64,000 nt of DNA from an uncultured Planctomycetales bacterium. GTDB taxonomy: Bacteria > Omnitrophota > Gorgyraeia > Zapsychrales > JANLHA01. The position numbers and the translations under genes are program-made. Location of the stretch: assembly GCA_964595465.1 (NCBI GenBank), contig CAZQQI010000007.1:3930-67929 (forward strand), read 5' to 3'. The notes below the pieces were generated by a model. That model was not told the DNA's origin. It saw nothing but the letters and a program-made list of their open reading frames with translations, and made no database searches. How positions within the stretch are numbered: the first letter of the stretch is position 1; each line of letters starts with the position of its first letter. This document shows positions 20,231-59,200 of this stretch, piece by piece.

Positions 20231-20241
20231 GATGACCGGCT

Positions 20242-21105: not shown

Positions 21106-21109
21106 CGTT

Positions 21110-24799: not shown

Positions 24800-24833
24800 T
24801 GCGTACCGGGTGATACAGGGGTAACATAAGCAT

Positions 24834-26559: not shown

Positions 26560-26602
26560 ATTCCGTTTTGGTGCGTTTATCAGCGACTAAGGACGATCAT
26601 TT

Positions 26603-28742: not shown

Positions 28743-28746
28743 TGAT

Positions 28747-29199: not shown

Positions 29200-29200
29200 T

Positions 29201-30805
29201 ATGTGTTATAAATTTAAGTGTTTGGTCATGATGGCCGTGATCAGTTTTATATGCCCGCCGGGAATGGCAGCAGCTCAGAATTTTGCTTCGACGGCTCAGG
29301 AGCAGAGTTCTGAATCCGGCGATGTGCTGGCTCAGCTGGAGAATATGGAGACGATGATCACGGAGCAGGAACAGCAGGTCGAGCAGCTGAAAACCCGGGA
29401 TATTCCTAAGGATGATGTCGCGCCAGCGGCTGTGGTGGAGCGGGAGATGAGTATGGAGGAACAGCAGGCTTATTGGCAGCAGGACGTTGCTGATCAGAGT
29501 ATTCCGGATATCAAGAAACGTCTCAGGATCGATGCGGCTTTTCGGGAGGCCAAGGAATTCATGAAGCAGGTCGACCAGGATTTGGAAAATGTTCCGCAGC
29601 GTGTCGAAAAAGACGTTATTTACGAAATTAAGACCCCGGAAGAGATCATTCGTGGTGTGATCCCGGAAGAGGTCGCCGGCCGTGAGATCGATCTGGATTT
29701 TGACGAGACCCCGCTGGAAGATGTTTTAATGACGTTAGGGGCCAGTGCCGAGGTGAATATCATGCTTGATCCGTCTTTACGCGGAAAAACGCTGGATCTT
29801 CATCTGAAATCTGTGACCGTTGAGCATGCTTTGCTGCTTATCGCCCAGCCGTTTGATCTGGGGTTTAAGCAGATCGGGAATTCCCTGCTGGTCACCGAAC
29901 GTCAAAAATTGCGGAATGAGACTCTTGAATCCAAGGTCTTCACCCTGCGCAATATCAGCGCGGACCAGGTCGAGATCCTGGTGCGGGATATGGTCGAGAC
30001 GGTCAATATTAGTCCGGACATTAACAGCCTTCTGGTCATGGGGTCTCCCCAGGAGATCCGCAAGGTCGAACGAATCATAAAAGAGGTCGATAAGCCTCAG
30101 CTGCAGGTTATTCTTGAGGCTAAGATCGTAGAGGTCGACAAGGGGGCGTTAAAACAATTGGGCGTGGATTGGTCAGATTCGATCTCGCTTTCGTATCAGG
30201 AAAGCGGCCGCCCCAATGAGTTTGATACGACAGAAGATGCCCCGGATAATCCCTTTAAGATCTTTCAGCTTTCACGCAGCGCTTTGCAGTTTGATACGGT
30301 CTTAAAAATGCTGGAGACGCAGGATAAGGCAAAAGTTTTGTCTAATCCTCGGGTGGCGACTATGAACGACCGTCAGGCGGAGATATTTGTCGGAGACCGC
30401 ATTCCGTATACGGTCACGACCGTGTCCGGGGGAGTCGCGACCACAGATGTCCGTTTTGAAGAGCCCGGGATCCGCTTGCAGATCACCCCTTCGATCATCG
30501 ACGAGGATTTTGTTGTCATTAAGGTCGAACCGGAAGTGAGTTACATTTTTTCATTCCGGGGAGATGCCGATGAATATCCCTGGACCAAAAAGCGCAGCGC
30601 GACGGCATATGTGAGGGTGAAGAACAATCAGCCGTTTGTCATGGGCGGACTGTTAAGCCAGCAGGATAAAGAGACGTTATACAAGGTGCCGTTTTTGGGA
30701 GATATTCCGCTCATCGGCAATTTGTTTAATTATGATGACAGAACCCTGGAAGATGTTGAATTGATCATTACCGTCGTTCCCAAGATCGTCCGGGGAGAAG
30801 AATAG
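29201..30805 (+). CDS. pilQ: Secretin (PilQ/GspD family) outer-membrane channel.
   Basis: It has a signal peptide and N-domains. The C-terminal secretin motif is VPFLGDIPLIGNLF...ELIITVVPKIV. Confidence 0.85.
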   Translation: MCYKFKCLVMMAVISFICPPGMAAAQNFASTAQEQSSESGDVLAQLENMETMITEQEQQVEQLKTRDIPKDDVAPAAVVEREMSMEEQQAYWQQDVADQSIPDIKKRLRIDAAFREAKEFMKQVDQDLENVPQRVEKDVIYEIKTPEEIIRGVIPEEVAGREIDLDFDETPLEDVLMTLGASAEVNIMLDPSLRGKTLDLHLKSVTVEHALLLIAQPFDLGFKQIGNSLLVTERQKLRNETLESKVFTLRNISADQVEILVRDMVETVNISPDINSLLVMGSPQEIRKVERIIKEVDKPQLQVILEAKIVEVDKGALKQLGVDWSDSISLSYQESGRPNEFDTTEDAPDNPFKIFQLSRSALQFDTVLKMLETQDKAKVLSNPRVATMNDRQAEIFVGDRIPYTVTTVSGGVATTDVRFEEPGIRLQITPSIIDEDFVVIKVEPEVSYIFSFRGDADEYPWTKKRSATAYVRVKNNQPFVMGGLLSQQDKETLYKVPFLGDIPLIGNLFNYDDRTLEDVELIITVVPKIVRGEE

Positions 30806-30876
30806 TATTTTTCCGATCCAGCAATATTCTTCAGGCCCCGTCAGCGATGGCGGGGTTTTTTCTTAAAGAGGAGATC

Positions 30877-33138
30877 ATGCGCAATTTTTCAAAGGAACAA
30901 GGGCGTCAGGGATTTTCGCTGGTCGATGTTTTGGTCGGGACAGTGATCCTGTTCACTGTGGCGGGGTTCGGGCTGACGGCCAGCCGGGCGTTACGGTATT
31001 CTCATGAGATCGCCCGGAACAATCTCACCGCCACAAATCTTCTTCAGCAAAGCCAGGAAGAACTGCGGTATGCCATTGGGATCGGGAACAATTATGATTC
31101 GATCCAAGCCTGTGATTTTCCGGCGCCGGGGGAAGACGCGGCCTGCGGATTAGAGGCCCATGATCCCGTTATTTTTCCGGGAATGGAGCGTCACTATGAG
31201 ATCGATTTTATTGCCGGCAGTACAGAGCTAAAAAAAGCTACGGTTTCTGTGCGCTGGCAGGGGGTAATGGGAAGTCCGCGCCAGGTTCAATCAGTGATGC
31301 TGCTGGCCCGTCCGCCGGATCCTTTGCCGGCGAATCTTTATGGTCTGGTGAGCAATGCTCTGACCGGCCGTCCAGTCCGCGGAGCGCGGATTGTCCTGAA
31401 TCATGAAAGACAGGATGTGGTGCCCCTTTCGAGTGTAACCAGTGCGGAAGAAGACGGTATCAATTATGATTTCAGTGATCCTTCGACCGGGATTTACCGG
31501 CTTGAGACAGGTTCCTGGAGCGTCGAAGTGACGCATCGGGATTATGAAACCTTCGGTCCGGTGAACATTGTGCCTCATTTGGTTAACAATGAGTCCCGTC
31601 GTTATGATATCGAACTTGATCCTAAGCCGCGCGCGTATCTGCGGGTTAACATTGTGGACTTGGCCGGAAGCCCTGTGACCCTGCATGATCGGGATACCAC
31701 GCTCAGGGCTTATCATGACGGAGGAATTTTAACAGATCATGCGTCTCAAAAATGTGAAGTGAGGGGAGGCGGATTGCGTTCTGTGGAGTGGGAGTTTACG
31801 GATGAGCAGATCTCCGGAGGAGAATTAGCTGTTACGGTGAACACTTCTGACGCTTATCAGTCTTTTTATGTGGGCGATTTTGACTGTGATTCATATGCCG
31901 GGACCAGCCTGTGTGCCGACGGGTGGTCGTCATCTTTTTCTGCCGGTCACAGCTGGAACGGAGGCGGGGACGGTGATACCGTCATCCTGCGTATCGGAGA
32001 AACCACAGAAGTGGATGTTCCTTTACGGCCTGTTCCGCAGGCTGTTGTTTACGGTCAGTTCACATTGTCCGGACAGCCATTAACGCGCAGCGCGGCTCTC
32101 TATATGAAGACCAGCAGGTGGGCTTCTATCCATAGTTACGCGTCGTCTCGCTGTGACCCCGCGCAGGGACATTTTCCTTGTAACGGGATACGCACTACGG
32201 CGACAGGGACCTACCGCCTGCCGGTCCCGGCTCTGCAGGAGTTTTTGCCGGATACCGCTACGCATCAGCTGCGTATTCAGGCCAGAGAGATCTGGGCGGA
32301 TGTCGAACAATGCTGTCAAACGGTCGAGCAGACCCGTCTTTATGATTCGTACCGTTATCTTGACGCAGATGGCGAGGGAAGCCGGTCTTTATTATCCGGA
32401 ACGATAGAACAATATAACACGGACAAGGTGCCTCCGCCGCCGTATGTCTGCGGCGATGTTGAAGGTGAGGTCTTTGATGATAAAACCGGTGATCCCATTG
32501 TCAGCGGGGCGGTTCAGCTTTCTTACGGGGGGCGAGAATCTACCGACGGATCCGGAGATTATGAATATGTCTGTCCGGACCCGATGTTTGATGAACAGGG
32601 TAACCAGACAGCCTTCCGCGTTAAAAAAGGGAATAACGCATTATATGCCTGGAAAGGCGGGTATTATTCTTATCGTATGCCGGGGAATCTTTGGTATGAC
32701 AGCGGATCGTCTTATTTATATGTGAAGGAAAATGAGCGGATCGATGCCGGGCGCATTGAACTGTGGCCGCGGGGATACGGCGACCTGAGAGTTACTGTTC
32801 TGGATGCCGATACGGCGGAGCCGTTAAACGGGATGACTGTGGATCTTTCGTATTACAGTAGTGCCGGTCCTGGTGATCCGTCAGCTTTGACAACGGATGA
32901 TGCCGGAAGCGTTCTGTTTTCGCGGGTTCTGGAGACCTGGCCGCCGGAGGATCTTCCGGAAACCGGATACAAGACCACGGTACGTCGGCACAGCGCGGCC
33001 GCGGAGGATCCGGCGGGAAGATATCTTCAGGTTAACCGCGATGCCCAAGACCGGCCGGTACCGTACCCGGTTTCTGTGATTGCGGACGGCCTGCAGACAC
33101 TGACAATACTTATGGAGGATACCGGTGGCGGGATGTGA
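30877..33138 (+). CDS. Very large (753 aa) prepilin-type protein: an N-terminal pseudopilin helix fused to a Cys-rich extracellular region. It is a candidate tip adhesin or minor pilin.
   Basis: The GFSLVDVLVGTVILFTV cleavage/methylation motif lies after a short leader. Start is chosen at ATG 30877. Downstream are more than 700 aa with many Cys and carboxypeptidase-regulatory-like beta repeats. Confidence 0.55.
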   Translation: MRNFSKEQGRQGFSLVDVLVGTVILFTVAGFGLTASRALRYSHEIARNNLTATNLLQQSQEELRYAIGIGNNYDSIQACDFPAPGEDAACGLEAHDPVIFPGMERHYEIDFIAGSTELKKATVSVRWQGVMGSPRQVQSVMLLARPPDPLPANLYGLVSNALTGRPVRGARIVLNHERQDVVPLSSVTSAEEDGINYDFSDPSTGIYRLETGSWSVEVTHRDYETFGPVNIVPHLVNNESRRYDIELDPKPRAYLRVNIVDLAGSPVTLHDRDTTLRAYHDGGILTDHASQKCEVRGGGLRSVEWEFTDEQISGGELAVTVNTSDAYQSFYVGDFDCDSYAGTSLCADGWSSSFSAGHSWNGGGDGDTVILRIGETTEVDVPLRPVPQAVVYGQFTLSGQPLTRSAALYMKTSRWASIHSYASSRCDPAQGHFPCNGIRTTATGTYRLPVPALQEFLPDTATHQLRIQAREIWADVEQCCQTVEQTRLYDSYRYLDADGEGSRSLLSGTIEQYNTDKVPPPPYVCGDVEGEVFDDKTGDPIVSGAVQLSYGGRESTDGSGDYEYVCPDPMFDEQGNQTAFRVKKGNNALYAWKGGYYSYRMPGNLWYDSGSSYLYVKENERIDAGRIELWPRGYGDLRVTVLDADTAEPLNGMTVDLSYYSSAGPGDPSALTTDDAGSVLFSRVLETWPPEDLPETGYKTTVRRHSAAAEDPAGRYLQVNRDAQDRPVPYPVSVIADGLQTLTILMEDTGGGM

Positions 33139-33628
33139 GCAGATAAAATGTTATGCGGGCAAGGACTTGCGTCGCGGCTATAGTTTGATCGAAATGATCG
33201 TATCGATGATGATCTTTTCTACTCTTGCTGTGGTCGGGGGGATGGTGTTTTTTAGCAATGTGGTCATGTTTGATAAGCGGATGTCCAGTGCAGATCTTTG
33301 GCAGGAGGCCAATGTCTTTATTGAAGCGGTCACTGAAGATGTCCGGGAGGCCTCCCGTGTGGATGTTCCCAGCGGTTCGGACGATGTATTAATCGGGTAT
33401 GACCGTGATGGAAATCAGGCGTTCCGTTATGAAATTGCTGATGACGGCAAGGTCCGCGCTCTCTCGGGACCCTGGGGCGGCACGGTCTTTACCCGGCGTG
33501 CCGATAGCAGTAAGAGCGGGTTTGAACATTACGGCAATATGATCGATGTGAGCATAACGCTTATTGATCCGTCTTTTGTTAAAGATATAGCGGTCGCGAC
33601 CGGGACACGCATTGTTCTGAGGAATTAA
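33125..33628 (+). CDS. Minor pseudopilin (GspJ/PilW-like).
   Basis: The prepilin motif RRGYSLIEMIVSMMIFS is present. The true start is probably an internal TTG or GTG near 33161, which would give the leader MRRG. Confidence 0.55.
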   Translation: MAGCEQIKCYAGKDLRRGYSLIEMIVSMMIFSTLAVVGGMVFFSNVVMFDKRMSSADLWQEANVFIEAVTEDVREASRVDVPSGSDDVLIGYDRDGNQAFRYEIADDGKVRALSGPWGGTVFTRRADSSKSGFEHYGNMIDVSITLIDPSFVKDIAVATGTRIVLRN

Positions 33629-34936
33629 ATGAGAAAAAAAACACTGAAAATGCGCAGGTACAGGAACGGATCAAAAGGACAGGCCTTGCTGGGGGCGCTG
33701 TTTGTTATCATTATGGTCTTCGGCTACCTCACGGCGGCTGTGATCCGTTCCAACAGTGATATGCATCAGGCCGAATTTCGTAAATATTCACAAGAGGCTT
33801 TTTATGCTGCTGACTCAGGTGTACAGTGGGCTCTCTTTAATTTCCGTCGAGATCCGAGCTGGGGGTGGACGACCGAAAGCGGAGTGCAGACCTTTGATAT
33901 CAATGTCGCAGCAGAGAATTTCAGTTATCCGGTGGAGGATTGGGATTGCCGTGTCAGTGTGGATGACGGCGGCGCCTGGAGGGGGTGGACCAGAACACGG
34001 CTGGTGACGTCTGTCGGCAGGGATCCCGGTCGGAATGTGAACCGGACGGTCGTCGCACGTATCGTGGTCGAGAATCCTGCGCGCTTTCTGGTCTCGACGC
34101 TGGGGGATCTTATCCTGGAGAATGGAGCGGATATTCACGCACCAATTTTGGCCCAGAACATTATTTTTCGCGGACCGGATATTGATTTTATTGATCATGA
34201 CGTTTTGGGGATAGAGGCCAAGGCGTATTACTTTAATGCTGTTTTTGGTGCCGACAGCACTGGTACGCCGTATTATAGCGTTTCCGATGTTGAGGAGACC
34301 GATCCGATTGTCTTTTCATCTGTTGATGAACAATATTTCAGAACTCTCGCCAATGATGTCCGTTTAGGGGGGATGGTCGAATATTCTGCTTTGCCGGAAA
34401 AACATATGACTCTTCAGAATTATTCTGAAGGGTTTTCCGGTGAAGGGGCCGGTCTGATCTTCAGTGAAGGGGATGTCTATGTACAGGGAAGGTACGATCA
34501 TTCTATGATGGTTGTGGCAAAGGGGGATATCCATATAGCCGGCTCCCTGGATGCGCAGCTGCCGGATTCTGGTCCGGCTCCCCAATTAGCGCTTTTTTCC
34601 CGGGGGGATATTCTCATTGATGATGGGGCTGTTGATGCTGAAGGAAATTTAACAATAGAAGCAATGCTTGTCGCTGACGGTCAGGAAGATGGCGGGGACG
34701 GAAGGTCGTACGGGGGTGTGGTCCGTGCGCTGGCAGAGAATAATGTTTTTAATCATTTAAACTTTTTCGGGACCATTGCGGCCCGGGGGGAAGGGACGGA
34801 AGGCGACAGTTCGGCTGTAACGCTTTCGGCATTTCGCACTCGCAGTTATACGTTTAATCCCGCTTTGAGCCAGGACAACACCCTGCCGTTCAACATTCCG
34901 CATTTTGTCAATATTCTTTCCTGGGAACGGCAATGA
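33629..34936 (+). CDS. GspK/PilX-like minor pseudopilin (435 aa).
   Basis: The N-terminal GQALLGALFVIIMV matches the GspK-type non-canonical prepilin helix. A large periplasmic domain follows. Confidence 0.5.
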   Translation: MRKKTLKMRRYRNGSKGQALLGALFVIIMVFGYLTAAVIRSNSDMHQAEFRKYSQEAFYAADSGVQWALFNFRRDPSWGWTTESGVQTFDINVAAENFSYPVEDWDCRVSVDDGGAWRGWTRTRLVTSVGRDPGRNVNRTVVARIVVENPARFLVSTLGDLILENGADIHAPILAQNIIFRGPDIDFIDHDVLGIEAKAYYFNAVFGADSTGTPYYSVSDVEETDPIVFSSVDEQYFRTLANDVRLGGMVEYSALPEKHMTLQNYSEGFSGEGAGLIFSEGDVYVQGRYDHSMMVVAKGDIHIAGSLDAQLPDSGPAPQLALFSRGDILIDDGAVDAEGNLTIEAMLVADGQEDGGDGRSYGGVVRALAENNVFNHLNFFGTIAARGEGTEGDSSAVTLSAFRTRSYTFNPALSQDNTLPFNIPHFVNILSWERQ

Positions 34937-34992: not shown

Positions 34993-35075
34993 ATAAAAGT
35001 CATGTGTATATAGTTATATTTTTTTACAATGAATGCAGCGCAAGGTTAACAGAGCGTTAATCTGATCTCTCTCTT

Positions 35076-35516
35076 ATGATCGGCAGTAATCTTAAAAAAT
35101 TTCGACAGCAGAAAGGTTTGACTCAAAAAGATCTGGCCGATATTTTGGGTGTTTCCCGTCAGGCGGTCTGTCTTTGGGAGGCAGGTAAGCGTGAAGTCCG
35201 TGTGGGTTTTTTAAGTCTGCTGGCCGATATCTTAGGGATTACGGTCGATGAATTGGTCCGCTGCGGATCGGCCACAGGTTTTCAGTACTTGTCTGTTTCT
35301 GCTGTAGAGGTTGGCCTGGTTGGGGATTTTAATCATTGGGCGAAACCGTTGCCCTTGAAAAATGAAGGGAACGGTCTTTGGCGCATCACGCTCGATCTTA
35401 AACCCGGACGCTATGAATATAAATTTTATGTCGACGGAGAATGGTGCCTCGATCCGGAAAACGGCCAGACAGTCAGCAATCGTTACGGAACACAAAATTC
35501 TGTTGTGACGGTTTAG
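35076..35516 (+). CDS. Fusion of an XRE-family HTH DNA-binding domain with a CBM48 / AMPK-beta-like glycogen-binding module.
   Basis: The N-terminal LKKFRQQKGLTQKDLADILGVSRQAVCLWE is a classic Cro/C1 HTH. The C-terminal GDFNHWAKPLPL...WRITLDLKPGRYEYKFYVDGEWCLDP is the CBM48/E-set starch-binding signature. Confidence 0.7.
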   Translation: MIGSNLKKFRQQKGLTQKDLADILGVSRQAVCLWEAGKREVRVGFLSLLADILGITVDELVRCGSATGFQYLSVSAVEVGLVGDFNHWAKPLPLKNEGNGLWRITLDLKPGRYEYKFYVDGEWCLDPENGQTVSNRYGTQNSVVTV

Positions 35517-35552
35517 TTTACGGCTGCAGGTCACTTAAATGGCGAATACGAA

Positions 35553-36971
35553 ATGTTAAGCAGGGGACAAGAAAAGGAGAATACGGTGGCAGATAAAAAG
35601 AAAACGCCTAAAAAAACAACCAGGCAAACATCCGCTAAATCAAAGTCTAAAAAATCAGCCGTAAAAAAATCTCCGAAAAAGAAAACGGGTAAAAAGGCGG
35701 CGAAAAAGGCGGTAAAAAAATCCCCGCTCCAAAAGGGCGCGTCTGTAAAGAAGAAAACGGCAGTGAAAAAAAAGGGTTTATCCGCAAAAAAGAAAACCGT
35801 TGCGAAGAAAAAAAGCTTATCCGCAGAAAAGAAAACGACAGCGAAGAAAAAGAGCCCGGTTACCAATAAGAGGGTAAAGGGCATGATCCGTACCAACCTG
35901 GAGTATGCCTCCCGCGCCAAGCGTCCGGTCTTTATCGACAGCGAAGCCATGCCGGAAAGTTACGGCTCCACCAGTGTGGTCTTGATCGCGCGTGATCCCC
36001 GCTGGATCCATGCTTATTGGGAGATCGCCCCGTCCAGTATTGAAGAGGTCCGCGCGCGTTACGGAAAATCTGTCGACCGCGCTGTTAAAGTCCTGCGCAT
36101 GTATGACGTGACCATGATCAATTTTGACGGCCGTAATGCCAATCATATTTTTGATATTGAGGTGGGGGACGCTAATAATTGGTATGTGAATTTGCCTAAT
36201 GATCATGTCTCCTATTGCGCGGACATCGGCTTATTGACCCCGGAGAGTGATTTTTTTACGCTGGCCCGTTCGAATTTTGTGACGACCCCGCGTGCTCATG
36301 TGTCTCCCCGCAAAGAATTGGTCTGGATGGCTGTCGAGCCCGGGGCTGAACCAACGGCTTTTGTCTATGACGGAGAGGATCCCGCTCTGGAGACGGGTAA
36401 GACAAGTGTGCCTTCAGATGTCGTGATCGGCGAAGCGCATATCCGTGATTATTATTCACGGGTCTTTCCCTTGCTGCGCCGTGTCCTGATGCGGCATGCT
36501 TCTGAAGAAGGAGCCACAGCCCAAAGCGCGGTGGACGCTGCTTTGCAGTATATCGAAGACCAGGATATGATGGCCTATGATTATTTCCGCCGGATCCTGC
36601 TCGGAGCTTCTGAAGAAATGATGGAAAAGGGCCGTATGGGGGAAGAAGGTATCGGCGGAATTTCCAGTGAAGAATTGGCCCCTTCATCCTGGGGCGGGGC
36701 CTCGGAAGAGGGTGCACCAGGTCCGCAGAGCGGATTCTTTTTTGAGCTCGGTACGGAATTGATCGTTTATGGGCGGACCGAGCCTGACGCGAAAGTGGAG
36801 TGGGGTGGGAAACCGATCATGCTCCGAGAGGACGGGACCTTTACGCTAAGAATGGCCCTGCCCACGGATACGCATATTCCTCTGGATTTTACTGCTGTTA
36901 AGTATGATGGGCGGCATCGCCGTTCGATCAATACAGCCGCACAGCGGGACTCTACGGAATATAAAGAATAA
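35553..36971 (+). CDS. DUF4912-like protein with a long N-terminal histone-H1-like Lys/Ala-rich tail.
   Basis: The first ~110 aa are KKKT/AKKK repeats. The remainder carries a DPRWIHAYWEI-type motif that I associate with DUF4912 proteins found next to GH57 genes. Confidence 0.45.
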   Translation: MLSRGQEKENTVADKKKTPKKTTRQTSAKSKSKKSAVKKSPKKKTGKKAAKKAVKKSPLQKGASVKKKTAVKKKGLSAKKKTVAKKKSLSAEKKTTAKKKSPVTNKRVKGMIRTNLEYASRAKRPVFIDSEAMPESYGSTSVVLIARDPRWIHAYWEIAPSSIEEVRARYGKSVDRAVKVLRMYDVTMINFDGRNANHIFDIEVGDANNWYVNLPNDHVSYCADIGLLTPESDFFTLARSNFVTTPRAHVSPRKELVWMAVEPGAEPTAFVYDGEDPALETGKTSVPSDVVIGEAHIRDYYSRVFPLLRRVLMRHASEEGATAQSAVDAALQYIEDQDMMAYDYFRRILLGASEEMMEKGRMGEEGIGGISSEELAPSSWGGASEEGAPGPQSGFFFELGTELIVYGRTEPDAKVEWGGKPIMLREDGTFTLRMALPTDTHIPLDFTAVKYDGRHRRSINTAAQRDSTEYKE

Positions 36972-37003
36972 TGTAACGGATATTTTCTGAAGACCTTTTT
37001 TTC

Positions 37004-38638
37004 GTGGTCTTATTTGAATATGTTAGGAGCAGTATGGCCCAGGGTTATCTTTCATTGGTTCTGCACGCGCACCTGCCTTTTGTCCGGCATCCGGAAGAAG
37101 AGTATTTCCTTGAAGAGAACTGGCTGTATGAGGCGATCACCGAGACCTACCTGCCTTTGCTGATGACGCTGGAACAGCTGGTCCGGGACGGGGTGTATTT
37201 CCGTCTGACTTTGTCGCTTAGTCCTACATTGGTCAGCATGTTGAGGGACCCTTTTTTACAAGAGCGGTATATCCTTCATTTGGACCGCATGATCGAACTG
37301 GCCGGCCGGGAGATCGAACGGACCGGTTTCGATGCCCGGTATCATGGATTAGCCCTGATGTATCATCGTCGTTTTGTTGATTTTCGTCATATGTTCTGCG
37401 AGACCTATCAGCGGGACCTGGTCGGTGCGTTCAAATACTTTCAGGATACGGGCTGTTTGGAGATCATGACCAGCTGTGCGACACATGGATTCCTGCCGAT
37501 TTTGGCCGTTAATCCGCGGGCAGCTGAGGCCCAGATCCGTATCGGTGTCGACTCGTATACAGAAGTATTCGGACGTCCGCCGCGCGGGATCTGGCTGCCG
37601 GAATGCGGCTTTGTCCCGGGCATCGACACGATGCTTAAGCGGGTCGGGATCAGATATTTCATAGTGGATTCCCACGGTCTGATGTATTCAGATCCGCGCC
37701 CTAAATATGGGATCTTTGCGCCGGTCTATACACCTGCGGGGGTTGCTGCTTTCGGCCGGGATTGGGAATCGTCCAAACAGGTTTGGAGTGCCAAAGAGGG
37801 ATATCCCGGGGATCCGGCCTATCGCGAATATTATCGGGATATCGGCCATGAACTGGAATATGAATACGTCAGGCCGTATATTGATCCGGCCGGCACCCGT
37901 GTCAATACCGGTCTGAAGTATTGGCGGGTAACGGGGCAGACCGCGGCCAAAGAGCCTTACCGTCCGGATATTGCCAGGGAAAAGGCGGCGGAGCACGCCG
38001 CGGATTTCATCGCCCGGCGGCAGTCTCAGGTAAGGGATCTTCATAATAGAATGCACCGTGATCCGATCATTGTCGCGCCTTACGATGCTGAACTTTACGG
38101 CCATTGGTGGTATGAAGGGCCTGTTTTTATGGATTTTCTTTTTCGTAAACTGGCTTTTGATCAGTCACTGATCCGTCCCGCGACGCCGACAGAATATCTT
38201 ACGGCTTACCGTGTGAACCAAATGGCCATGCCGTCATCTTCCAGCTGGGGTTATAAAGGTTACAGTGAGTATTGGCTGGATAAAAGCAACGACTGGATCT
38301 ACCGGCATATCCATAAGGCAGCTGAACGTATGCAGGAGCTGGCCGTTAAATTCAGCACAGAGATACAGAATCCCAAGGATTCTGTGACAAAGCGGGCACT
38401 TAATCAGGCGGCACGGGAACTTTTGTTGGCTGAATCCAGCGATTGGCCCTTTATTATGCGGACCGGGACGATGGTGGCATATGCCCAACGCAGGATCCGT
38501 CTGCATATTTCCCGGTTTACCCGTTTATATGATGATTTGCTGGAGAAAAACATATCGGAAGAATGGTTGACAGAAATCGAAGAACGCGATAATCTCTTTT
38601 CTGATATGGAATGTGCCCGTTATTATCTCCCTGAATGA
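37004..38638 (+). CDS. GH57 family alpha-glucan enzyme, probably a 1,4-alpha-glucan branching enzyme (DUF1957-containing).
   Basis: GH57 signatures are present: LVLHAHLPF near the N-terminus, a GIWLPECGF nucleophile region and a C-terminal helical DUF1957-like region. Confidence 0.8.
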   Translation: MVLFEYVRSSMAQGYLSLVLHAHLPFVRHPEEEYFLEENWLYEAITETYLPLLMTLEQLVRDGVYFRLTLSLSPTLVSMLRDPFLQERYILHLDRMIELAGREIERTGFDARYHGLALMYHRRFVDFRHMFCETYQRDLVGAFKYFQDTGCLEIMTSCATHGFLPILAVNPRAAEAQIRIGVDSYTEVFGRPPRGIWLPECGFVPGIDTMLKRVGIRYFIVDSHGLMYSDPRPKYGIFAPVYTPAGVAAFGRDWESSKQVWSAKEGYPGDPAYREYYRDIGHELEYEYVRPYIDPAGTRVNTGLKYWRVTGQTAAKEPYRPDIAREKAAEHAADFIARRQSQVRDLHNRMHRDPIIVAPYDAELYGHWWYEGPVFMDFLFRKLAFDQSLIRPATPTEYLTAYRVNQMAMPSSSSWGYKGYSEYWLDKSNDWIYRHIHKAAERMQELAVKFSTEIQNPKDSVTKRALNQAARELLLAESSDWPFIMRTGTMVAYAQRRIRLHISRFTRLYDDLLEKNISEEWLTEIEERDNLFSDMECARYYLPE

Positions 38639-39505: not shown

Positions 39506-42500
39506 ATGACAGAAGCGCATCGGCACAAGCATCCTCTGCTTAAATTTATATCGCTCGTTCTCGCAACAGTCTTTTTAACCACCACAATTCTTCCGCCTCG
39601 GTTGGCCCGGGCGCAGGTCCTGCCGACCCTGCCGGTCCCCGGAACCCTTTTGAGCACCTCACAGGGGTATGTTCCGCTTTTGCTCAAGGGGATCCAGGTT
39701 GACCCGCAGAATCCGCTGTCCTTCAACTTTATTATGAATACCGGTGAACTGCGCGCCGATACCGATGGCCTGCGTGAAGAGATGCAGCGCCAGATCAAAT
39801 ATTTTCTGGCTTCGCTGACCGTGCCCGAGGCAGAGATGTGGGTCAACCTGTCGCCTTATGAAGGCGACCGTATCATCCCGGATGCCTTCGGGCAGACCGA
39901 GATGGGCATGGACCTGCTGGCCCAGGATTATCTGCTGAAACAGCTGACCGCCAGCCTGATGTATCCTGAAGAAGAACTGGGACAGGCCTTTTGGAAACGC
40001 GTGTATCAGCGGGCCGAAAAAGAGTTCGGGACGCGGGATATTCCGGTGGATACCTACAACAAGGTCTGGATCGTGCCTGAAGACGCCACGGTCTTTCAGA
40101 AAGACGGCAGTGCTTATGTGATCGAGAGCAGTCTGAAGGTCATGCTGGAAGAGGATTATGTGGCCAAGATGGAAGGCCGCCAGGTCAGCCGCAGCAGCAG
40201 TGTTCAGGATATTGATGCTCAGATCATCCGTGAAGTGATTATTCCTGAAATTGAACGGGAAGTCAATGAAGGGCAGACCTTTGCTAAACTGCGGCAGATC
40301 TATCAGGCCATGATCCTCGCGACCTGGTATAAGATCAACCTGCGGGAGACTTTGCTCGGCCGGATCTATGTGGACCGCAATAAAGTCGCCGGGGTTGACA
40401 CCGCAGACAAACAGCTCAAAGAAAAAATTTATCAGCAGTATATAGACGCCTTTAAAAAAGGTGTCTACAACTATATTAAGGAAGAGCAAGATCCGGTATC
40501 CGGTCAGATCATCCCGCGGAAATATTTTTCCGGCGGGTTTACGACAGATGAAGCCCTGCTGACTACTGTGCAGGGCAGCCTGATCGACGGGAATGGCGGA
40601 TTGGCGCCTTATCAGCAGGAGCAAATCGTAACATCCTTGGGCACATTCGCCGCCGGGAGCCGTACCATTGCGGTCGATGTTAACCTGGTTGAAGATCCCG
40701 CAGCTAAAGGATGGTCGCAGGTCGTCACGGCCGAGACCTTCAGCCGAGATGCCCAGGGTCTTGTCCGCGCGGATGCCGCCATGCTGACAGAAAACAGCAA
40801 GGATTATTTGCGAGACAATAATCCGGAGCTTCTGCACAATGTTGATAACGGTAATTTTTCGCCCGAGCAGGTCGAGGCAATTAATATTATGGTCGACATC
40901 GGTAATGCCGGTATACTCAAAGAGAGTTCTAACGTTGGAGGGCTGTTAGACCAAGTGGCCCGACGGGATAAGACCTATCCGACCGGGCTCCGAGGATATC
41001 ATGCAAATGCTGCTAGAAAGATGAAAATTTTTTATGAGGGCGGCAATCCCATGGCCGATGTCATCAAGATCAGTGCCCCTGCGACAAAAGATCTTACGTC
41101 GGCAGATTCTGAAACTCTTAATGTGCTGAATCGTGAAGGTTTAAAGGTTGTTAATAAAACAGTCTTTGTCATGCCAGCCGGGGGGCTGGGGGAACGGCTT
41201 GGCTATGGCGGATTAAAGTTGGATCTGCCGCTGGATTCGCTTACTCGGAAATCGTATTTGCAGATGTATGCAGAAAATATCCTGGCGCTACAAGAAAGGT
41301 CAAATAATTTAAATGGAGAAGATGAACGCATTCCTTTGGTGATGATGACCTCGGCAGACAATCATCAGCGGACCCTGGATTTTATTCAGAAAAACAATCT
41401 GTTCGGCATGGATGGGCTGACGGTTATTGATGTGACCAAGGATATTGCGGTCTATGATGCTGGCGCGGGAAAGGTCGTGGTTGCGGATCGCAGGGCATAT
41501 GAAGATCGTAATGAGATCGTTAACCCCCGTGATATCGGTCAAATGGTGATCTTTCAGCAGGATTCTGTTTTTGCTTTTACAGGAGAGGATGCTAAGTTTG
41601 TTCTGCAGGAAGATGGTCTTATTAAAGAAAAACCTCATAATCATGGAGATATCGAACTGCTTTTACATCTTTCCGGTGTGGCTAAAGCCTTTGAACAGGC
41701 CGGCAAGAAGCAGAGCCTCTTTTTCCAGGATACTAACGGAGAGGCCTTTAATGCGGTCCTGCCCGGATTGGGGGCATCGGTTACAGAAGGATACAAGGTA
41801 AATTTATTGGCCGTCGAACGCAAGCCCGGGGATGCTGTTGGAGCCATTGCCGAGATGACCCTTGAAAATGGGACGACACAGGTCGGGAATATCGAATATA
41901 ACGATGTGCCGAATGTCGCCAAAAATTATGGTCTTCCAGAAGAAAATTTTTCTTCAGGGAATATCAACATCTTTATTGTTAACCAGCAGGCATTGGCCGC
42001 TGCACTGGATGAAACTAATGGTTTAATGCCGGAGATTGTTAACCCCAAGCCGGATACCGGAGAAGCTCGCTTAGAAGCCATGATGCAGGATATCGCCAAA
42101 GCTGTTCCCGGTTCTCAGGTAGGGGTCACGTCATTCCCGGTAAGAATGATCTTTGCCGCCACCAAAAATGCTTTACCCCGGGCCTTGAGTAAGGTTGAAA
42201 AGGGCAATTTCCCCGAGCACCTGGCTGCGACTGAAGGCGTTTATCATATGAACACGCGGGAGATGTTGGCCCGGGCTGGTGTTGAGATTAATCCAGAAGG
42301 GAATACGAGGTACGCATTTGAGGATCTTTTACAACCCGCCTTTGGGCTTGAATCAGAAGTTCCCGGTATTCCTTATCAGGACGGAGCGCGGATATCTCTT
42401 TCCCCGTTTTTTGCTCAGTCTGTTGAAGACATTCAGCAAAAGATGAAGGGCGTCAGCATCAGCGACCGGTCTTTTGTGGTGATTGAAGGGGAACGTGTTT

Positions 42501-44527
42501 TCTTGAAAGATGTCAAGATCGATGGTGCTGTCGATATCCGGACCAATCCCGCTCAGACTCTTGTCCTCGAAAATCTCACGATAGAGAATGCCGGCTGGGA
42601 GTTTGTGCCTTTGACCGCCGAGGAAGTTTTGGATGAGCGAGGGCTGCCGGAAGATATCCGCATGAGAGGATATAAGCTGGTTAAACGCGATCAATTTTCA
42701 GTAGACATTACAGATCAAGGCCCTGGTGTGTACACGGTTGATACGGAAGGAAATGTCCGCCGGGCTGATCCGGCTGTGCTGACAGAAGTGCTGGATCCGT
42801 CAGAAGCTATCCGCCTCATTACAGAAAGTGCTGATCCCGGTTTTCTTGAATTTCTGCTCGACTATGCCCGTCATGACGGGCATGTTGAACAGCGTCAGAT
42901 CGACCCGCAGATATTAGCGCGGCAATTACGGGAGACCGGTCTGGCCGATGCCGGATCTGAACAGGATCGGGCTATTCAGCAGGGGATTCCCCGGTTAGGA
43001 GAATTGCGTGAGGCACGGGACCCGCGCGGGTATCGGATCTTAAGCGAGATGGCCGGCCGGGAGTTGTTCGCCGATCGTGATTTTCAGAGACAGATCCTGT
43101 CCGAGATCCGGCAGGGGAGGGTTACGTTCGCTTTATTGAAGCCCGACACCATTGGGTTAGGAGAAGAAGAACGGATGCTGGCGGCCTTGGAATCAGCGGA
43201 CTTTGAGGTTATTGAAGGCCCCCATATCCGTTTGTCGGAGGCTGAGGCGGAAGAGCTTTATCAGGAGCATAAAGGACAACGTTATTTTTCTGCTTTGATC
43301 GATTTTATGACCGGAACCGGAGAGTACGCCGGTCGGGAGCAGAGCGTGGTCCCGCTGTTTTTAAAAACGGCGGCTCAACGTGCCGAGACCGCGGCTCAGC
43401 TTTTTGAGAGAAACCGGAATATCTTGCGCGGAATTATTCCGCACTATGATCAGGATTTGGCTAAACGCGAAAATCGTATCCACGGTTCTGACAGCATCAA
43501 TAGCGCTGAACGCGAGGCCGGGCTGATCTTTAAGATGTTCCCGGAGAGAGAGGGTGTCGGGAAACCGGTGCTTTCATCCTCTTCGGATGTTATGAGTACG
43601 AGCGATGAGCAGGGAGAATTTGTTGCTCTGGAAAGTAGTGGAATATTTCGGACATCCCTGAAAGACGGACAGCATGTCCTTATTGATGTCACGGACTCCC
43701 GGTATGATATTGCTAAGACATTTCATGTGGCCAGGCAAGGCGGCCGGATCATGATCGATGGGGAAATTAAGAGACAATATACTGATGAGCGTGATCGTGA
43801 CGTCATGATTTTACCGGTCATTGATGATGCAGCAGCAGAGGGTCCTTTGCTGAGTATCGTTGTTGCCCAAAATGAGGGGGATCTGGAGGTGACGCACAAT
43901 CTTTCCGGACCCGGCAGCTCGGTCAAGATCCGCAATGTCGATGCGGCGCAATTGAGCCGTTCAGAGAGCGAGCAGGATCAGCAGTATGCCCTGGAGTTGC
44001 TGCAGAATCGGCTGTCCCTGCTCCAGCAGGAAGTTCGGAATATGGAAGCTGAGATCAAATCCATTCAAACTCAGCAGGCGCGTTTTCGAGATAATTCTGT
44101 TCAATGGAACCGCCGGCATAATCGGATGCAGGACTTAAGAGAACAGCTGAATAGAAAACGTGCGGAGATCGCTCAAACAGAGCAGCAAATACGCAGGGTA
44201 ACGGATCAAGCGGGCCCCGTTATGACGGCCCGCCAAGATGATGATAGAGTGGGTGGTATTGATCTGAACAGCGCGCATCTGAACCTCAAGATCGAACGCG
44301 ATGACCGCGGCGTGCCTCTGCCGATGGATCAGCAGCCCATGCCGGAGCTTATGAACATAGACGGGTTTTTGCCGGTGATCATTAATGTGACGCCTATCCA
44401 GAGCGTCCCGATGCTGTTGGGCCTGGAGGATTCTCCGGCTGATCAGCGGCAGACCGGGACAGAATCCGTGCCGGGTGAGCAGCCCCGTGCGCGTTTGGAA
44501 AAAGCGGTTATAGAGGCCGCCATTTAG
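39506..44527 (+). CDS. Giant (1673 aa) multi-domain protein. In order: an N-terminal signal anchor, an unknown domain of ~500 aa, a UDP-sugar pyrophosphorylase (UDPGP/USP)-like domain, a nucleoside diphosphate kinase domain, a coiled coil and a C-terminal tail.
   Basis: The ORF is uninterrupted. The N-terminus is positively charged (HRHKH) before a TM helix. A UDPGP motif (MPAGGLGERLGYGG, about 41171) and a pyrophosphorylase signature (KPHNHGDIELL) are followed by a beta-helix-like region. The NDK domain (about 43118-43540) reads RVTFALLKPD...YQEHKGQRYF...NRIHGSDSINSAEREAGLIF, compared with NDK ERTFxIIKPD...NxxHGSDSVESAxREIxxFF. A coiled coil lies at about 43980-44200. Confidence 0.75.
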   Translation: MTEAHRHKHPLLKFISLVLATVFLTTTILPPRLARAQVLPTLPVPGTLLSTSQGYVPLLLKGIQVDPQNPLSFNFIMNTGELRADTDGLREEMQRQIKYFLASLTVPEAEMWVNLSPYEGDRIIPDAFGQTEMGMDLLAQDYLLKQLTASLMYPEEELGQAFWKRVYQRAEKEFGTRDIPVDTYNKVWIVPEDATVFQKDGSAYVIESSLKVMLEEDYVAKMEGRQVSRSSSVQDIDAQIIREVIIPEIEREVNEGQTFAKLRQIYQAMILATWYKINLRETLLGRIYVDRNKVAGVDTADKQLKEKIYQQYIDAFKKGVYNYIKEEQDPVSGQIIPRKYFSGGFTTDEALLTTVQGSLIDGNGGLAPYQQEQIVTSLGTFAAGSRTIAVDVNLVEDPAAKGWSQVVTAETFSRDAQGLVRADAAMLTENSKDYLRDNNPELLHNVDNGNFSPEQVEAINIMVDIGNAGILKESSNVGGLLDQVARRDKTYPTGLRGYHANAARKMKIFYEGGNPMADVIKISAPATKDLTSADSETLNVLNREGLKVVNKTVFVMPAGGLGERLGYGGLKLDLPLDSLTRKSYLQMYAENILALQERSNNLNGEDERIPLVMMTSADNHQRTLDFIQKNNLFGMDGLTVIDVTKDIAVYDAGAGKVVVADRRAYEDRNEIVNPRDIGQMVIFQQDSVFAFTGEDAKFVLQEDGLIKEKPHNHGDIELLLHLSGVAKAFEQAGKKQSLFFQDTNGEAFNAVLPGLGASVTEGYKVNLLAVERKPGDAVGAIAEMTLENGTTQVGNIEYNDVPNVAKNYGLPEENFSSGNINIFIVNQQALAAALDETNGLMPEIVNPKPDTGEARLEAMMQDIAKAVPGSQVGVTSFPVRMIFAATKNALPRALSKVEKGNFPEHLAATEGVYHMNTREMLARAGVEINPEGNTRYAFEDLLQPAFGLESEVPGIPYQDGARISLSPFFAQSVEDIQQKMKGVSISDRSFVVIEGERVFLKDVKIDGAVDIRTNPAQTLVLENLTIENAGWEFVPLTAEEVLDERGLPEDIRMRGYKLVKRDQFSVDITDQGPGVYTVDTEGNVRRADPAVLTEVLDPSEAIRLITESADPGFLEFLLDYARHDGHVEQRQIDPQILARQLRETGLADAGSEQDRAIQQGIPRLGELREARDPRGYRILSEMAGRELFADRDFQRQILSEIRQGRVTFALLKPDTIGLGEEERMLAALESADFEVIEGPHIRLSEAEAEELYQEHKGQRYFSALIDFMTGTGEYAGREQSVVPLFLKTAAQRAETAAQLFERNRNILRGIIPHYDQDLAKRENRIHGSDSINSAEREAGLIFKMFPEREGVGKPVLSSSSDVMSTSDEQGEFVALESSGIFRTSLKDGQHVLIDVTDSRYDIAKTFHVARQGGRIMIDGEIKRQYTDERDRDVMILPVIDDAAAEGPLLSIVVAQNEGDLEVTHNLSGPGSSVKIRNVDAAQLSRSESEQDQQYALELLQNRLSLLQQEVRNMEAEIKSIQTQQARFRDNSVQWNRRHNRMQDLREQLNRKRAEIAQTEQQIRRVTDQAGPVMTARQDDDRVGGIDLNSAHLNLKIERDDRGVPLPMDQQPMPELMNIDGFLPVIINVTPIQSVPMLLGLEDSPADQRQTGTESVPGEQPRARLEKAVIEAAI

Positions 44528-44558: not shown

Positions 44559-44588
44559 CAGCGCTGAATCCAATTCAGCGCTGTTTTT
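44559..44588 (+). terminator. Rho-independent terminator after the giant gene.
   Basis: An 11-bp perfect stem (cagcgctgaat / attcagcgctg) with a 3-nt loop is followed by T5 and preceded by A7. Confidence 0.7.
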
Positions 44589-56246: not shown

Positions 56247-59200
56247 GTGTGTGTTCTCTTAAAAAAGAGTGTGTCCAAAAAAGGCCTAATGTTCGCTTCG
56301 AAAAAAAACATTTTATGCGCTGTTCTGTTTGCGGCCTCGTTTTTTTGCGCCACCCCTGCGCCGGCTCAGTCCGCGGACGGGCCGGAATCGTTATATGAGA
56401 TCGGTGTTCTGGCGGATTACAGTCGTGATGATGTTATCCGGCACTGGGTCCCTACCGCGCGGTATCTTTCCGATTATATCCAGCACGCCGATTTTACCAT
56501 AGTCCCTTTAAATTATAGTCAGATCTACGGAGCGGTTTCAAAAGGGCAGGTGGATTTTGTCATTGCCAATCCTGGAATTTTAGTGGAGGCCATGTATTTG
56601 TATAAGGTCCGCTGTATGGCTTCTTTGTCCAGGGAATATAACGGGTGGGAATTCACTCATTATGGCTCGGTGCTTTTTACCGCCCAAGACAGCGGGATCA
56701 AGACACTAGGGGACTTGAAAGGCGCCCGGTTTGCCGCCCCGGCTCCGGATTCTTTCGGCGGCTGGATCCTCGCGGCCAGAGAAATGCAGTATGCCGGACT
56801 TAATGTCCAGTCAGATCTGAGTGAGATCATTTTTGTCGGATCTCATGATCATGTCGTTGACGCAGTGCTGGAAGGAAAAGCTGATGCCGGCGCGGTACAC
56901 AGCGGTGTTCTGGAACATCTTTCCTTATGGGCAGAAGTTGACCTTGGCCGGCTCCGTATTCTTAAAGGCCGTTTGACCATGAACAGGAGTCTGGAAGGAC
57001 TGCCGTTCCATACCAGTACTCCGCTTTTTCCGGAATGGTCGATCGCTAAATTGCCGCATGTTTCGGAAGATCTTGCCGGTTTGGTGACCGAAGGACTGTT
57101 CCGCTTGTCCCAACTGAATCCTGATGCCGCTCAGCAGGGAGGGTATAAACGCTGGATCGTGCCGCTGAATTATACATCAGTCAGACAGGCTTTAAGTGAT
57201 GTGCAGGGGAGTCAGCAGGGGGCGGCATACCGTTTGCTCTTTTTGGACTTTTTGAGGGATTATTGGTATGTGTTCTTTCTGGTATTTCTCATCTTTTTCT
57301 ATCTTATGTTCACCATCCTTCACCGCGCAGGTTTGTCCCGGGCGCTTCGCCGGTCCAAGCTGGCTTTGGAAAAAGAACTGCTTCAGCATAAACAGGCGGA
57401 AGAATCGCTGCGGGAATCTCAGAAAATGCTCACTCTGGTCATGGATTCCATACCGGTACGGGTGTTCTGGAAAGACCGCAACCTGACCTATCTGGGTTGC
57501 AATCAGGTTTTTGCCGAGGATGCCGGGCTGTTATCTTCGGAATCGATCGTTGGAAAAACAGATTATGAGCTCAGCTGGACCCGGGACCAGGCCGACAGCT
57601 TCCGGGAATATGATCAGCGCGTGATCGGGACCGGCCGGCCGATATACAATATCATTGAATCTCAGCAGCATGCCGATGGTAATCTTTATTGGCTGAAGAC
57701 CAATAAAGTGCCGATGCGCGACAGCTACGGCAACGTGATCGGTATGTTGGGAACGTATGAAGATATTACCGAATCCCGCCGTGCTGAGGAGGCGTTGCGG
57801 ACCAGTGAGGCGAAATACCGGGATCTGGTCGAAAACGCCAATAGTATTATTATCCGGCTGAACGCCCGGGGAGACATCCTGTTCTTTAATGAGTTCGCTG
57901 AAAAGTATTTCGGCTATTCAGAAGATGAAGTGGTCGGAAAAAATTTAAAAGAGACCATATTGCCGTCTGATATTGTTCCTCCGGAATGGGTCGACAATGC
58001 GCTGAACAAGATCCTTATGGATTCTGACGAATGGCGTTTTGCGGAAAATCAGAATGCCAAGAAGAATGGCGAGATTGTCTGGGTGGCCTGGACAAACCGC
58101 GCGGTTGTGAACGAGCAGGGGGAAAAGGAGATCCTGGCCGTCGGTACAGACATTACCCAGCGGCGCCATATGGAAGAAGAACTGCGTAAACTGTTTACCG
58201 CGGTGGAGCAGAGTCAGAATGTTATTCTGATCACAGATCCCCGCGGAGATATTGAATATGTGAATCCGAAATTCACCGAGCTGACCGGGTATCAGGAAGA
58301 GGAGGTTTTGGGAAAGAACCCCAGGCTGCTTAAATCCGGTGAATCCCCTCCTGAGGTTTATAAGGTTTTGTGGCAGACCATCCGCGATGGCGAGACCTGG
58401 CGGGGCGAATTTCATAATCGCAGAAAAGACGGTTCGCTCTATTGGGAACGGGCTGCAATCTCCCCGGTTAAAAACGACCAGGGTGAGACGGTGTATTATA
58501 TCGCGATCAAAGAAGACATCACTGAACAGAAGAAACTGTCTCAGGAGCTCCAGAAGGCCTTCGGCCGCCTGAAGGAGATGGAGAGGATCATCAATTTAAG
58601 TAACGCTATGGTCTTTCTCTGGGATCCCCAGGATGAATGGCCTGTCCGCTTTGTTTCGGATAATGTGCGCGTCCTGGGCTATGAACCCCGGGAGTTTTAC
58701 GAAAACCAACTGCATTTTCAGCATCTTATTTATGAAGAAGATGTGGCTATGGTCAAGGCAGAGGTTGAGCGCAATATTAAAGCTCGCAAAGATGAATTTT
58801 CTCAGCAATACCGGCTGCAGACCCGTGATGGACGTGTTCGCTGGTTTGAGGTCTACACTTGGGTGACCTATTGGAAGGCCGGACAGCCGTCGCAGTATCA
58901 GGGCGTGGCCTTTGATATCACTGAACGCAAACTTGCCGAAGAGCGCATGTTTGAAGCCATTAATATGAAGGCGGAATTCATCTCGATCGTGTCGCATGAA
59001 TTGCGGACGCCTCTGACTGCGATCAAGGAGAGTATTAATATTGTTATCGAAGATGAGGATAGCGGGATCAATGATTCTCAGAAGCATTTTTTGAGTATTG
59101 CCAAGAGAAATGTTGACCGTCTCGGCGTTCTGATCAATGACGTGCTGGATTATCAGAAGCTGGACGCCGGCCAGCTCAAATTTCAGTGGCAGGAAGGGGA

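Follow-up and report, generated by a model that had tools for sequence, protein, structure and literature searches.

An Omnitrophota nucleoside diphosphate kinase domain without the Kpn-loop signature, embedded in a large protein that also carries a UDP-sugar pyrophosphorylase domain

Introduction

Nucleoside diphosphate kinases (NDKs) are obligate oligomers in which the Kpn loop clamps the phosphates of the substrate and builds the hexamer. In the enzyme of Mycobacterium tuberculosis the active-site pocket is made up of K10, Y50, R104, N114, H117, S119 and E128, with Lys10, Tyr50, Arg86, Thr92 and Arg104 acting as phosphate ligands, and the Kpn loop belongs to both the nucleotide clamp and the trimer interface (PMC7554756). 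In the mimivirus NDK this loop is naturally short, and the short loop together with two virus-specific active-site residues has been linked to a preference for pyrimidine and deoxy nucleotides (PMC7554756). Here we describe an NDK domain found in 64,000 nucleotides (the window, to which all coordinates refer) of contig CAZQQI010000007.1 of assembly GCA_964595465.1, which derives from an uncultured bacterium deposited as a member of the Planctomycetales and placed by GTDB in the phylum Omnitrophota. By profile, fold and catalytic residues the segment is an NDK-fold domain, and it fails the Kpn-loop feature, including T94.

An earlier note on this DNA, made from its letters alone, had drawn attention to the domain, to its intact catalytic histidine and to a divergent Kpn region. 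The main functional clues going beyond that note are a UDP-sugar pyrophosphorylase (USP) domain immediately upstream in the same chain, a Sec-like signal peptide, and a protein family defined by shared N- and C-terminal modules. Reading from the sequence, we give roughly even credence to the proposal that the domain would act as a UDP-to-UTP recycling module feeding the fused USP, and that it would not be assembled as the canonical hexamer or tetramer.

Results

An NDK domain with its catalytic residues in place

Translation of 43118-43540 on the forward strand gives exactly the peptide quoted in the earlier note, in frame inside an open reading frame (ORF) of 1673 residues in which the domain occupies residues 1205-1348, so that its placement in a large polypeptide was correctly described. 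Taken alone, the segment matches PF00334 with 65.6 bits (cut-off 27; E 5.6e-18) over profile positions 3-131 of 135, and on the whole protein the match falls at residues 1207-1343. Solved NDKs in the PDB are matched at E-values down to 3e-12, with NRIHGSDS aligned to the catalytic N-x-x-H-G-S-D-S and its histidine, His1326, in the phospho-His position. The claim of an embedded NDK domain with an intact catalytic histidine is therefore borne out, the profile match and the aligned phospho-His position, on which it hung, being both present. The NCBIfam equivalog models for ndk match at about 53 bits, far under their cut-offs of 155-255, and the segment is thus an NDK-family domain but not an ordinary Ndk. 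Its parts are as follows:

43082-43117, + strand: clade-specific helix before the NDK core, FQRQILSEIRQG, seen in the AlphaFold model and similar in the related proteins P0178, P0268, P0186 and P0082
43118-43549, + strand: NDK-fold domain, residues 1205-1348 (Pfam envelope residues 1207-1343), from Pfam, PDB, AlphaFold2 and Foldseek
43202-43234, + strand: strand β2 broken by Gly-Pro, FEVIEGPHIRL, from the model break at EGP and the clade columns
43322-43345, + strand: 8-residue insertion EYAGREQS between helix α2 and strand β3, from alignments; unique to the query protein
43346-43366, + strand: strand β3, VVPLFLK, recognisable in the alignment
43367-43471, + strand: α3/Kpn-equivalent segment of 35 residues, TAAQRAETAAQLFERNRNILRGIIPHYDQDLAKRE, without G92, T94 and P96
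43472-43495, + strand: catalytic strand NRIHGSDS, residues 1323-1330, with the predicted phospho-His His1326 at 43481-43483 and the N115 and S120 equivalents

Residues were mapped by alignment guided by a hidden Markov model (HMM) and are numbered as in human NME2; the alignment includes NME2 and E. coli Ndk, the latter agreeing with the 2hur alignment. K12, Y52, N115, H118 (His1326), S120 and E129 are all present, the counterpart of E129, catalytic partner of His1326, being the Glu of AEREAG. The R105 equivalent, the Arg of ILRG, lies in a poorly alignable region and is the least certain assignment, while the F60 position is occupied by Tyr and R88 aligns to Gln, with an Arg adjacent. The Kpn signature is missing, Thr, Ala and Leu standing in place of G92, T94 and P96, and the α3/Kpn-equivalent segment is near the canonical length with a sequence unrelated to the canonical loop. 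The residues missing from the loop also serve as phosphate ligands, so that the change touches substrate binding as well as assembly. The divergence reported earlier is real but its boundaries were imprecise: the stretch quoted as the Kpn loop includes most of the EYAGREQS insertion and the recognisable strand β3, and the α3/Kpn-equivalent segment follows only after that strand.

The earlier note had also proposed a structure model, and one was built with AlphaFold2 on a 120-row alignment, in which canonical NDKs from the homologue search served only as depth (a single-sequence run gave an unusable pLDDT of 49.7). The model (pLDDT 85.3, pTM 0.81) predicts all four NDK-fold strands together with the helices that flank them, in the ferredoxin-like αβ arrangement with a β2β3β1β4 sheet, β2 being interrupted at Glu-Gly-Pro. 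It also predicts an extra N-terminal helix at model residues 2-7, the first 10-residue block having a mean pLDDT of 95. Confidence within the domain is lowest at model residues 111-130 (pLDDT 63-65), a block that covers the rewritten loop from its midpoint onwards and the first residues of the catalytic strand.

Comparison of the model with the PDB by Foldseek gave 232 matches at E<=1e-3, and all 50 of those listed are NDKs. The best target-normalised scores among the matches listed belong to the mimivirus NDK structures 3fcw and 3b6b (TMt 0.78-0.80, root-mean-square deviation 2.4-2.7) and to Vibrio cholerae 5x00, the high values partly reflecting the shorter targets. The Kpn loop is naturally short in the mimivirus enzyme and was not observed in 5x00 (PMC7554756), and since the best matches have a short or unobserved loop, the shared core is the NDK fold with the Kpn loop left out.

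Relatives of the embedded NDK domain

Scanning 1.84 billion representatives with HMMER gave 740 relatives at E<=1e-3; among the 150 matches listed, the query itself aside, identity to the query NDK is at most 44%, and the top scorers are tandem multi-NDK proteins, boosted by their repeated domains. Seven embedded NDK domains, that of the query and those of P0004, P0082, P0178, P0186, P0232 and P0268, cluster as a single clade when 106 NDK domains are placed in a neighbour-joining tree, drawn without bootstrap. At 35-37% identity they rank among one another's closest relatives, and the query NDK is at most 37% identical to any other NDK domain in the comparison. The N- and C-terminal modules of the query are found in the NDK-bearing P0178, P0268, P0082 and P0004 as well, and related NDK domains without these modules occur in P0186 (3938 residues) and P0232 (934 residues). 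Judged by its sequences, the clade is a small, Omnitrophota-specific set of putative "cargo" NDK domains.

Conservation was compared by column statistics over 40 standalone NDKs, 291 other multi-domain NDK domains and the seven embedded domains, which replaced a strict regular expression for the Kpn loop that was too narrow for eukaryotic multi-domain NDKs:

G92: standalone 40/40; other multi-domain 287/291; embedded clade 1/7 (P0232 only)
T94: standalone 40/40; other multi-domain 166/291 (commonest residue); embedded clade 0/7
Gly at the M38 position: standalone 0/40; multi-domain, outside the four commonest residues; embedded clade 6/7
Pro at the K39 position: standalone 0/40; multi-domain, outside the four commonest residues; embedded clade 4/7
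Y52, N115, H118 and E129: standalone 40/40; other multi-domain 232-273/291; embedded clade 7/7
K12 and R105: standalone 40/40; other multi-domain 245 and 285/291; embedded clade 6/7
S120: standalone 40/40; other multi-domain 258/291; embedded clade 5/7

Neither Gly nor Pro occurs at the M38 or K39 position in any of the 40 standalone NDKs, and two more clade members carry a Pro one residue past the K39 position. Both positions belong to β2, through which the subunits of the canonical dimer pair (interfaces as described in PMC7554756). R88 is lost or uncertain in three clade members, the query included, and the loop is 8-12 residues shorter than canonical in most members, the query having kept its length but not its sequence. 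A helix before β1 with the pattern F-x-x-x-F-L-x-x-I-x-x-G is common to the clade.

Retention of the catalytic residues at such low identity, combined with loss of the loop that serves assembly and clamping, suggests a working, re-engineered kinase and not a decayed relic. P0004 appears to be an exception to this pattern, since its NDK looks degenerate (NILHVPDD, no aligned K12, 29.7 bits). It is nevertheless conceivable that the domains are degenerate as a group and act as nucleotide-binding, regulatory or structural modules without turnover of nucleoside diphosphates, as some eukaryotic group II domains do. The domain would then have been kept to bind UTP or UDP or to position the USP, a reading that we regard as unlikely. 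The clade-wide loss of T94, the loss of G92 in all members but P0232, the state of R88, the low equivalog scores and the clear degeneracy of P0004 all fit such a degenerate module, as does the alteration of both interfaces of the active canonical assembly (PMC7554756). On the other hand, H118, N115, Y52 and E129 are invariant at about 35% identity and K12 and R105 are kept in six of seven domains, which argues for selection on catalysis and not on the fold alone, and the short-loop mimivirus NDKs have been solved with nucleotides and are described as functional kinases.

Further searches enlarged this picture little. Scans of DNA with the degenerate pattern NRIHGSDS..A..E mostly found canonical standalone ndk genes, the genome scan mainly those of Rickettsiales; they added three NDK-bearing loci in metagenome-assembled genomes (MAGs) titled Candidatus Omnitrophota (L030, L051 and L063) and, from metagenomes, three long ORFs (L083, L115 and L079). 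A word-indexed search with the NDK domain alone returned seven distant standalone NDKs and not the query's own protein, and one with the clade alignment returned mostly canonical NDKs. No relative of the C-terminal 675 residues was found in species-representative genomes.

Proteins of about 940 residues with a central NDK were also observed, namely P0232 (934 residues) and the 956-residue ORF at 380-3247 of L115. No N- or C-module was detected in either, and a Pfam scan of P0232 found no domain besides the NDK, which groups with the embedded clade and alone keeps G92.

The host protein

The ORF carries, in order, a signal peptide-like segment, the N-module, the USP domain, a linker, the NDK, a coiled coil and the C-module. 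The features outside the NDK are:

39494 (start), + strand: ribosome-binding site AAAGGA, upstream of the ORF
39506-44527, + strand: ORF of 1673 residues holding the NDK domain, one uninterrupted frame
39506-39613, + strand: Sec-type signal-peptide-like N-terminus, residues 1-36, with a basic n-region, hydrophobic core and PP..ARA/Q, read from the sequence
39614-40726, + strand: conserved Omnitrophota N-module, about residues 37-407, present in 120/120 best homologues at 50-60% identity
40943-42691, + strand: USP/UDPGP domain, about residues 480-1062, from PDB matches and PF01704
43943-44215, + strand: predicted coiled-coil or low-complexity helical region, about residues 1480-1570, from heptad-like sequence
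44252-44425, + strand: conserved C-module, residues 1583-1640, GGIDLN...FLPVIINVTP...LLGL, present in 113/120 homologues
44559-44588, + strand: hairpin and T-run, CAGCGCTGAAT-CCA-ATTCAGCGCTG-TTTTT, read from the sequence and not listed by a simple terminator scan

Judging from its sequence, the strong hairpin with its T-run is likely to serve this gene as an intrinsic terminator. Neither another NDK nor a further member of the N-/C-module family occurs in the window.

The sequence is of metagenome type and no homologue above 54% identity extends over its NDK part, so that a fusion artefact has to be considered, in the form of a chimeric assembly or of a missed stop or frameshift joining a separate ndk to its neighbours. 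The probability of this is close to negligible: the frame runs uninterrupted from the N-module to the C-module and is followed by the terminator hairpin, a Logan contig from SRR11308339 encodes an identical protein (P0001), and the layout of N-module, NDK and C-module recurs in P0082, P0178, P0268, L030 and L083, which come from other assemblies. An assembly chimera was rejected on these grounds.

Alteration of both assembly surfaces

With the Kpn signature gone and β2 interrupted, both canonical assembly surfaces are altered, and the usual hexamer or tetramer is probably not built; the earlier note had likewise called the divergence consistent with work inside a large polypeptide in place of that assembly, a view to which the clade columns lend support. 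The domain would then act while tethered, either singly or in pairs formed through other parts of the chain. A coiled-coil-like region of about 90 residues lies 130 residues downstream of the NDK, has only weak matches, to the coiled-coil families SMC, PspA and CCDC, and could still bring NDK copies together.

It may instead be that the NDK still oligomerises, and must do so, through the coiled coil or the N-/C-modules, the Kpn divergence reflecting a changed nucleotide specificity. We think this rather improbable, although the coiled coil would offer a means, monomers must form dimers for activity, and the mimivirus NDK is hexameric despite its short Kpn loop, with the loop and two virus-specific residues tied to specificity (PMC7554756). 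Against it stand the Gly or Gly-Pro of β2, which would upset the sheet that canonical dimers form by β2-β2 pairing, and the loss of the complete G92-T94-P96 signature, which contributes to the trimer contact.

The USP partner and the proposed function

The USP domain matches PDB entry 9uml ("MbUSP", E 1.6e-77) and Leishmania USP 3oh0 (E 1e-35) over nearly its full length, and PF01704 on the whole protein scores 28.7 bits against a cut-off of 22. The nucleotide-binding loop GGLGERLG is found at residues 559-566 (41180-41203) and PHNHGD at 41633-41650, and an insertion of about 40 residues (637-679; 41414-41542) separates two blocks aligned to 9uml and 3oh0.

An NDK and a USP/UDPGP domain stand in one chain in four of the seven clade members (query, P0004, P0268 and P0186), whereas about 9 of the 99 family members found through the N-module alone carry USP/UDPGP. 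This association gives a Fisher p of 0.004, rising to 0.086 when two ascertainment-biased cases, found through their USP, are left out; the six loci and ORFs added by the degenerate scans are too few to strengthen these statistics. The order of domains differs, being USP then NDK in the query, NDK then USP in P0004 and UDPGP then NDK in P0268. That both orders occur speaks for functional coupling and against inheritance of one ancestral fusion; the statistical association is suggestive and not conclusive.

The genes directly upstream encode an HTH-CBM48 protein, a DUF4912 protein and a GH57 branching enzyme (35070-38638). This HTH-CBM48, DUF4912 and GH57 neighbourhood is kept at the gene for the closest homologue, P0002 (54% identity; L069 1-5764), where a GT5 glycogen synthase is also present; none was found at the corresponding position in the query window. 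P0002 is uninformative on conservation of the NDK, because its contig ends 30 nucleotides past the USP domain. Its gene (GCA_964491705.1) ends at an in-frame TGA, L069 9169-9171, where the query has Gly (EDIRMR-G-YKLVK), past which the homologous YKLVKNDTGL continues in the same frame to the contig end. This TGA could be a sequencing error near the contig end, the mark of a pseudogene, or a codon read as an amino acid.

In the UTP-recycling scheme that we favour, ATP would phosphorylate His1326, and the phosphate would pass to UDP released by glycosyltransferases. The neighbouring USP would combine the resulting UTP with a sugar-1-phosphate and so yield UDP-sugar from which glucans or glycans are made, so that the UDP/UTP cycle would be closed locally within one polypeptide, with UTP channelled from one domain to the other. 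By analogy with the mimivirus enzyme, in which the short Kpn loop and two virus-specific residues have been linked to a pyrimidine preference (PMC7554756), an NDK tuned to UDP is plausible.

The N-/C-module family and the site of action

A search with the full-length protein found 3,615 proteins at E<=1e-5 among 8,000 candidates scored, which is a lower bound. Matches with a named source are labelled Candidatus Omnitrophica/Omnitrophota, except for one MAG contig labelled Bathyarchaeia and two hydrothermal vent metagenome entries. Among the 120 homologues listed the N-module is universal, and the C-module, of the pattern GGIDLNPALLDLQIKRDGNGVPLP...GFLPVIINITP...LLGL, is always 0-33 residues from the C-terminus where it occurs. 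The query itself matches the module HMMs at E 5.5e-177 (N-module, residues 3-407) and E 5.1e-33 (C-module, residues 1566-1668). Neither module has a match in Pfam, NCBIfam or the PDB sequences, including a 13-sequence profile search of the PDB. Between the modules lies interchangeable enzyme cargo that includes PGM, UDPGP, starch/glycogen synthase, PGI, TPI, enolase, transaldolase, FBPase and PGK, and further isocitrate lyase, malate synthase and acyl-CoA dehydrogenases, along with receiver, GGDEF and HEAT domains.

By a heuristic based on Kyte-Doolittle hydropathy and charge, 103 of the 120 have an N-terminal hydrophobic segment, whose flanks carry a mean charge of +2.5 (N side) and about 0 (C side). 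A-x-A-Q motifs are seen repeatedly by eye at the N-termini (pattern PP..A-Q-A/Q), which look like cleavable Sec signal peptides. Sequence inspection of the GH57 neighbour found no obvious N-terminal hydrophobic segment.

Such N-termini, with A-x-A-Q conserved across the family, raise the alternative that the protein is exported. The NDK would then act at the cell surface, in the periplasm or inside the cell of a host or prey, where it would interconvert or scavenge host nucleotides together with further enzyme cassettes that this host-dependent phylum exports. Pathogens are known to secrete NDKs, and the window holds a gene set for a type II secretion system or type IV pili (T2SS/T4P) upstream, at 23135-34936. 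Two preprints on giant proteins of Omnitrophota describe sugar-metabolism domains predicted to be extracellular, which is the same paradox of location, and one of the two reports secretion and pilus genes flanking (10.1101/2023.11.21.568195; 10.64898/2026.06.07.730766). Conversely, the cargo enzymes USP, PGM, PGI and TPI need phosphorylated cytoplasmic substrates, the synteny is with glycogen genes of cytoplasmic type, and the localisation comes from the hydropathy and charge heuristic only; on balance we hold export to be unlikely. It concerns location and is compatible with supply of UTP to the USP.

The surrounding cassette family is a more striking lead than the NDK domain. In its boldest form, a long shot in our estimation, a dedicated cassette would place much of sugar-nucleotide and central-carbon metabolism outside the ordinary cytoplasm, and the Kpn-less NDK would be the first tethered, non-oligomeric NDP kinase, tuned to regenerating UTP for its fused USP. 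The proteins could be bound for a surface coat, for some internal compartment, or for the cell of a host or prey.

Other genes in the window

The T2SS/T4P gene set encodes a GspE/PilB ATPase, GspF/PilC, PilN, PilO, a secretin, a CarboxypepD_reg-domain protein and N-methyl pseudopilins, and ends about 4.5 kb upstream of the NDK-bearing gene. A 489-residue ORF at 11407-12873 shows an unusual pairing of a PRK/uridine-kinase-family domain (PF00485, residues 40-188) with a DHDPS-family domain (PF00701, residues 246-368). A porin and a PstS/C/A/B-like phosphate ABC transporter are encoded at 17068-21865, and a 1133-residue sensor kinase with a phosphonate-binding periplasmic domain and several PAS domains at 56247-59645; these appear to be ordinary phosphate-acquisition and signalling genes.

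Discussion

Several points weigh against the proposal of a tethered, UTP-recycling NDK. All functional NDKs described so far are oligomers that need at least a head-to-tail dimer, and T94, which is absent here, and R88, which is uncertain, are both phosphate ligands in canonical NDKs (PMC7554756), so that catalysis could be weak or altered. Confidence in the model is lowest in exactly the rewritten loop, and the neighbour-joining tree that defines the clade carries no support values. The association with USP rests on seven proteins and is suggestive only at p 0.086, three clade members having an NDK and no detected UDPGP domain. Finally, the Sec-like N-terminus would take the enzyme out of the cytoplasm and so separate it from ATP, UDP and sugar phosphates.

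What makes the case worth pursuing is a lineage that keeps the catalytic residues, drops the Kpn loop, alters the dimer strand and sets the domain beside an enzyme that consumes UTP. If active, the domain would show that the NDK fold does not depend on the canonical assembly to function, and it would provide a compact natural design for UDP-sugar regeneration (ATP + UDP + sugar-1-P -> UDP-sugar). The host protein also points to a very large family of signal-peptide-bearing cassettes with cytoplasmic-type enzymes in an uncultured, host-dependent phylum, and the site at which these cassettes act bears directly on the lifestyle of these bacteria.

Comparison with known systems

A search of a limited literature collection found nothing on an Omnitrophota NDK, NDK-pyrophosphorylase fusions, "GGIDL" or "MbUSP". 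With canonical Ndk and NME1-4 the domain shares the ferredoxin-like fold, the N-x-x-H-G-S-D-S strand, the Lys/Tyr/Asn/Ser/Glu pocket and an R105-like Arg; it differs in being embedded, in lacking G92, T94 and P96, and in its Gly-Pro in β2, extra N-terminal helix and 8-residue insertion. The closest structural analogue is the NDK of Acanthamoeba polyphaga mimivirus (3b6b, 3fcw), with its naturally shortened Kpn loop, but that enzyme is a standalone hexamer of about 25% identity, and in the query the loop has been replaced and not just shortened.

The closest architectural analogues are the eukaryotic group II NDKs (NME7, NME8/TXNDC3, NME9/TXNDC6 and Chlamydomonas RSP23), in which the NDK likewise stands within a larger chain, RSP23 (7jrj) and NME7-type chains being among the best sequence matches in the PDB. 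The other multi-domain NDK domains, however, keep G92 (287/291) and mostly T94, and their partners are thioredoxin, DM10 or more NDK domains and not a pyrophosphorylase; in the neighbour-joining tree the group II NDKs do not group with the Omnitrophota clade. As for the partner domain, it shares the GGLGERLG and PH(N)HGD motifs with known USPs (9uml and Leishmania 3oh0), but those are standalone proteins of about 600 residues, whereas the USP of the query has an insertion of about 40 residues and is flanked by the N-module and the NDK.

The giant proteins of Omnitrophota (West-Roberts et al., 10.1101/2023.11.21.568195; 10.64898/2026.06.07.730766) are much longer, at least 10,000-20,000 residues, and keyword searches of the two preprints found no mention of the N-/C-module cassette or of an NDK. 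They nevertheless come from the same phylum and likewise carry sugar enzymes in long chains (PGM, starch synthase, PGI, TPI and FBPase), with a signal peptide or membrane association and with secretion or pilus genes nearby.

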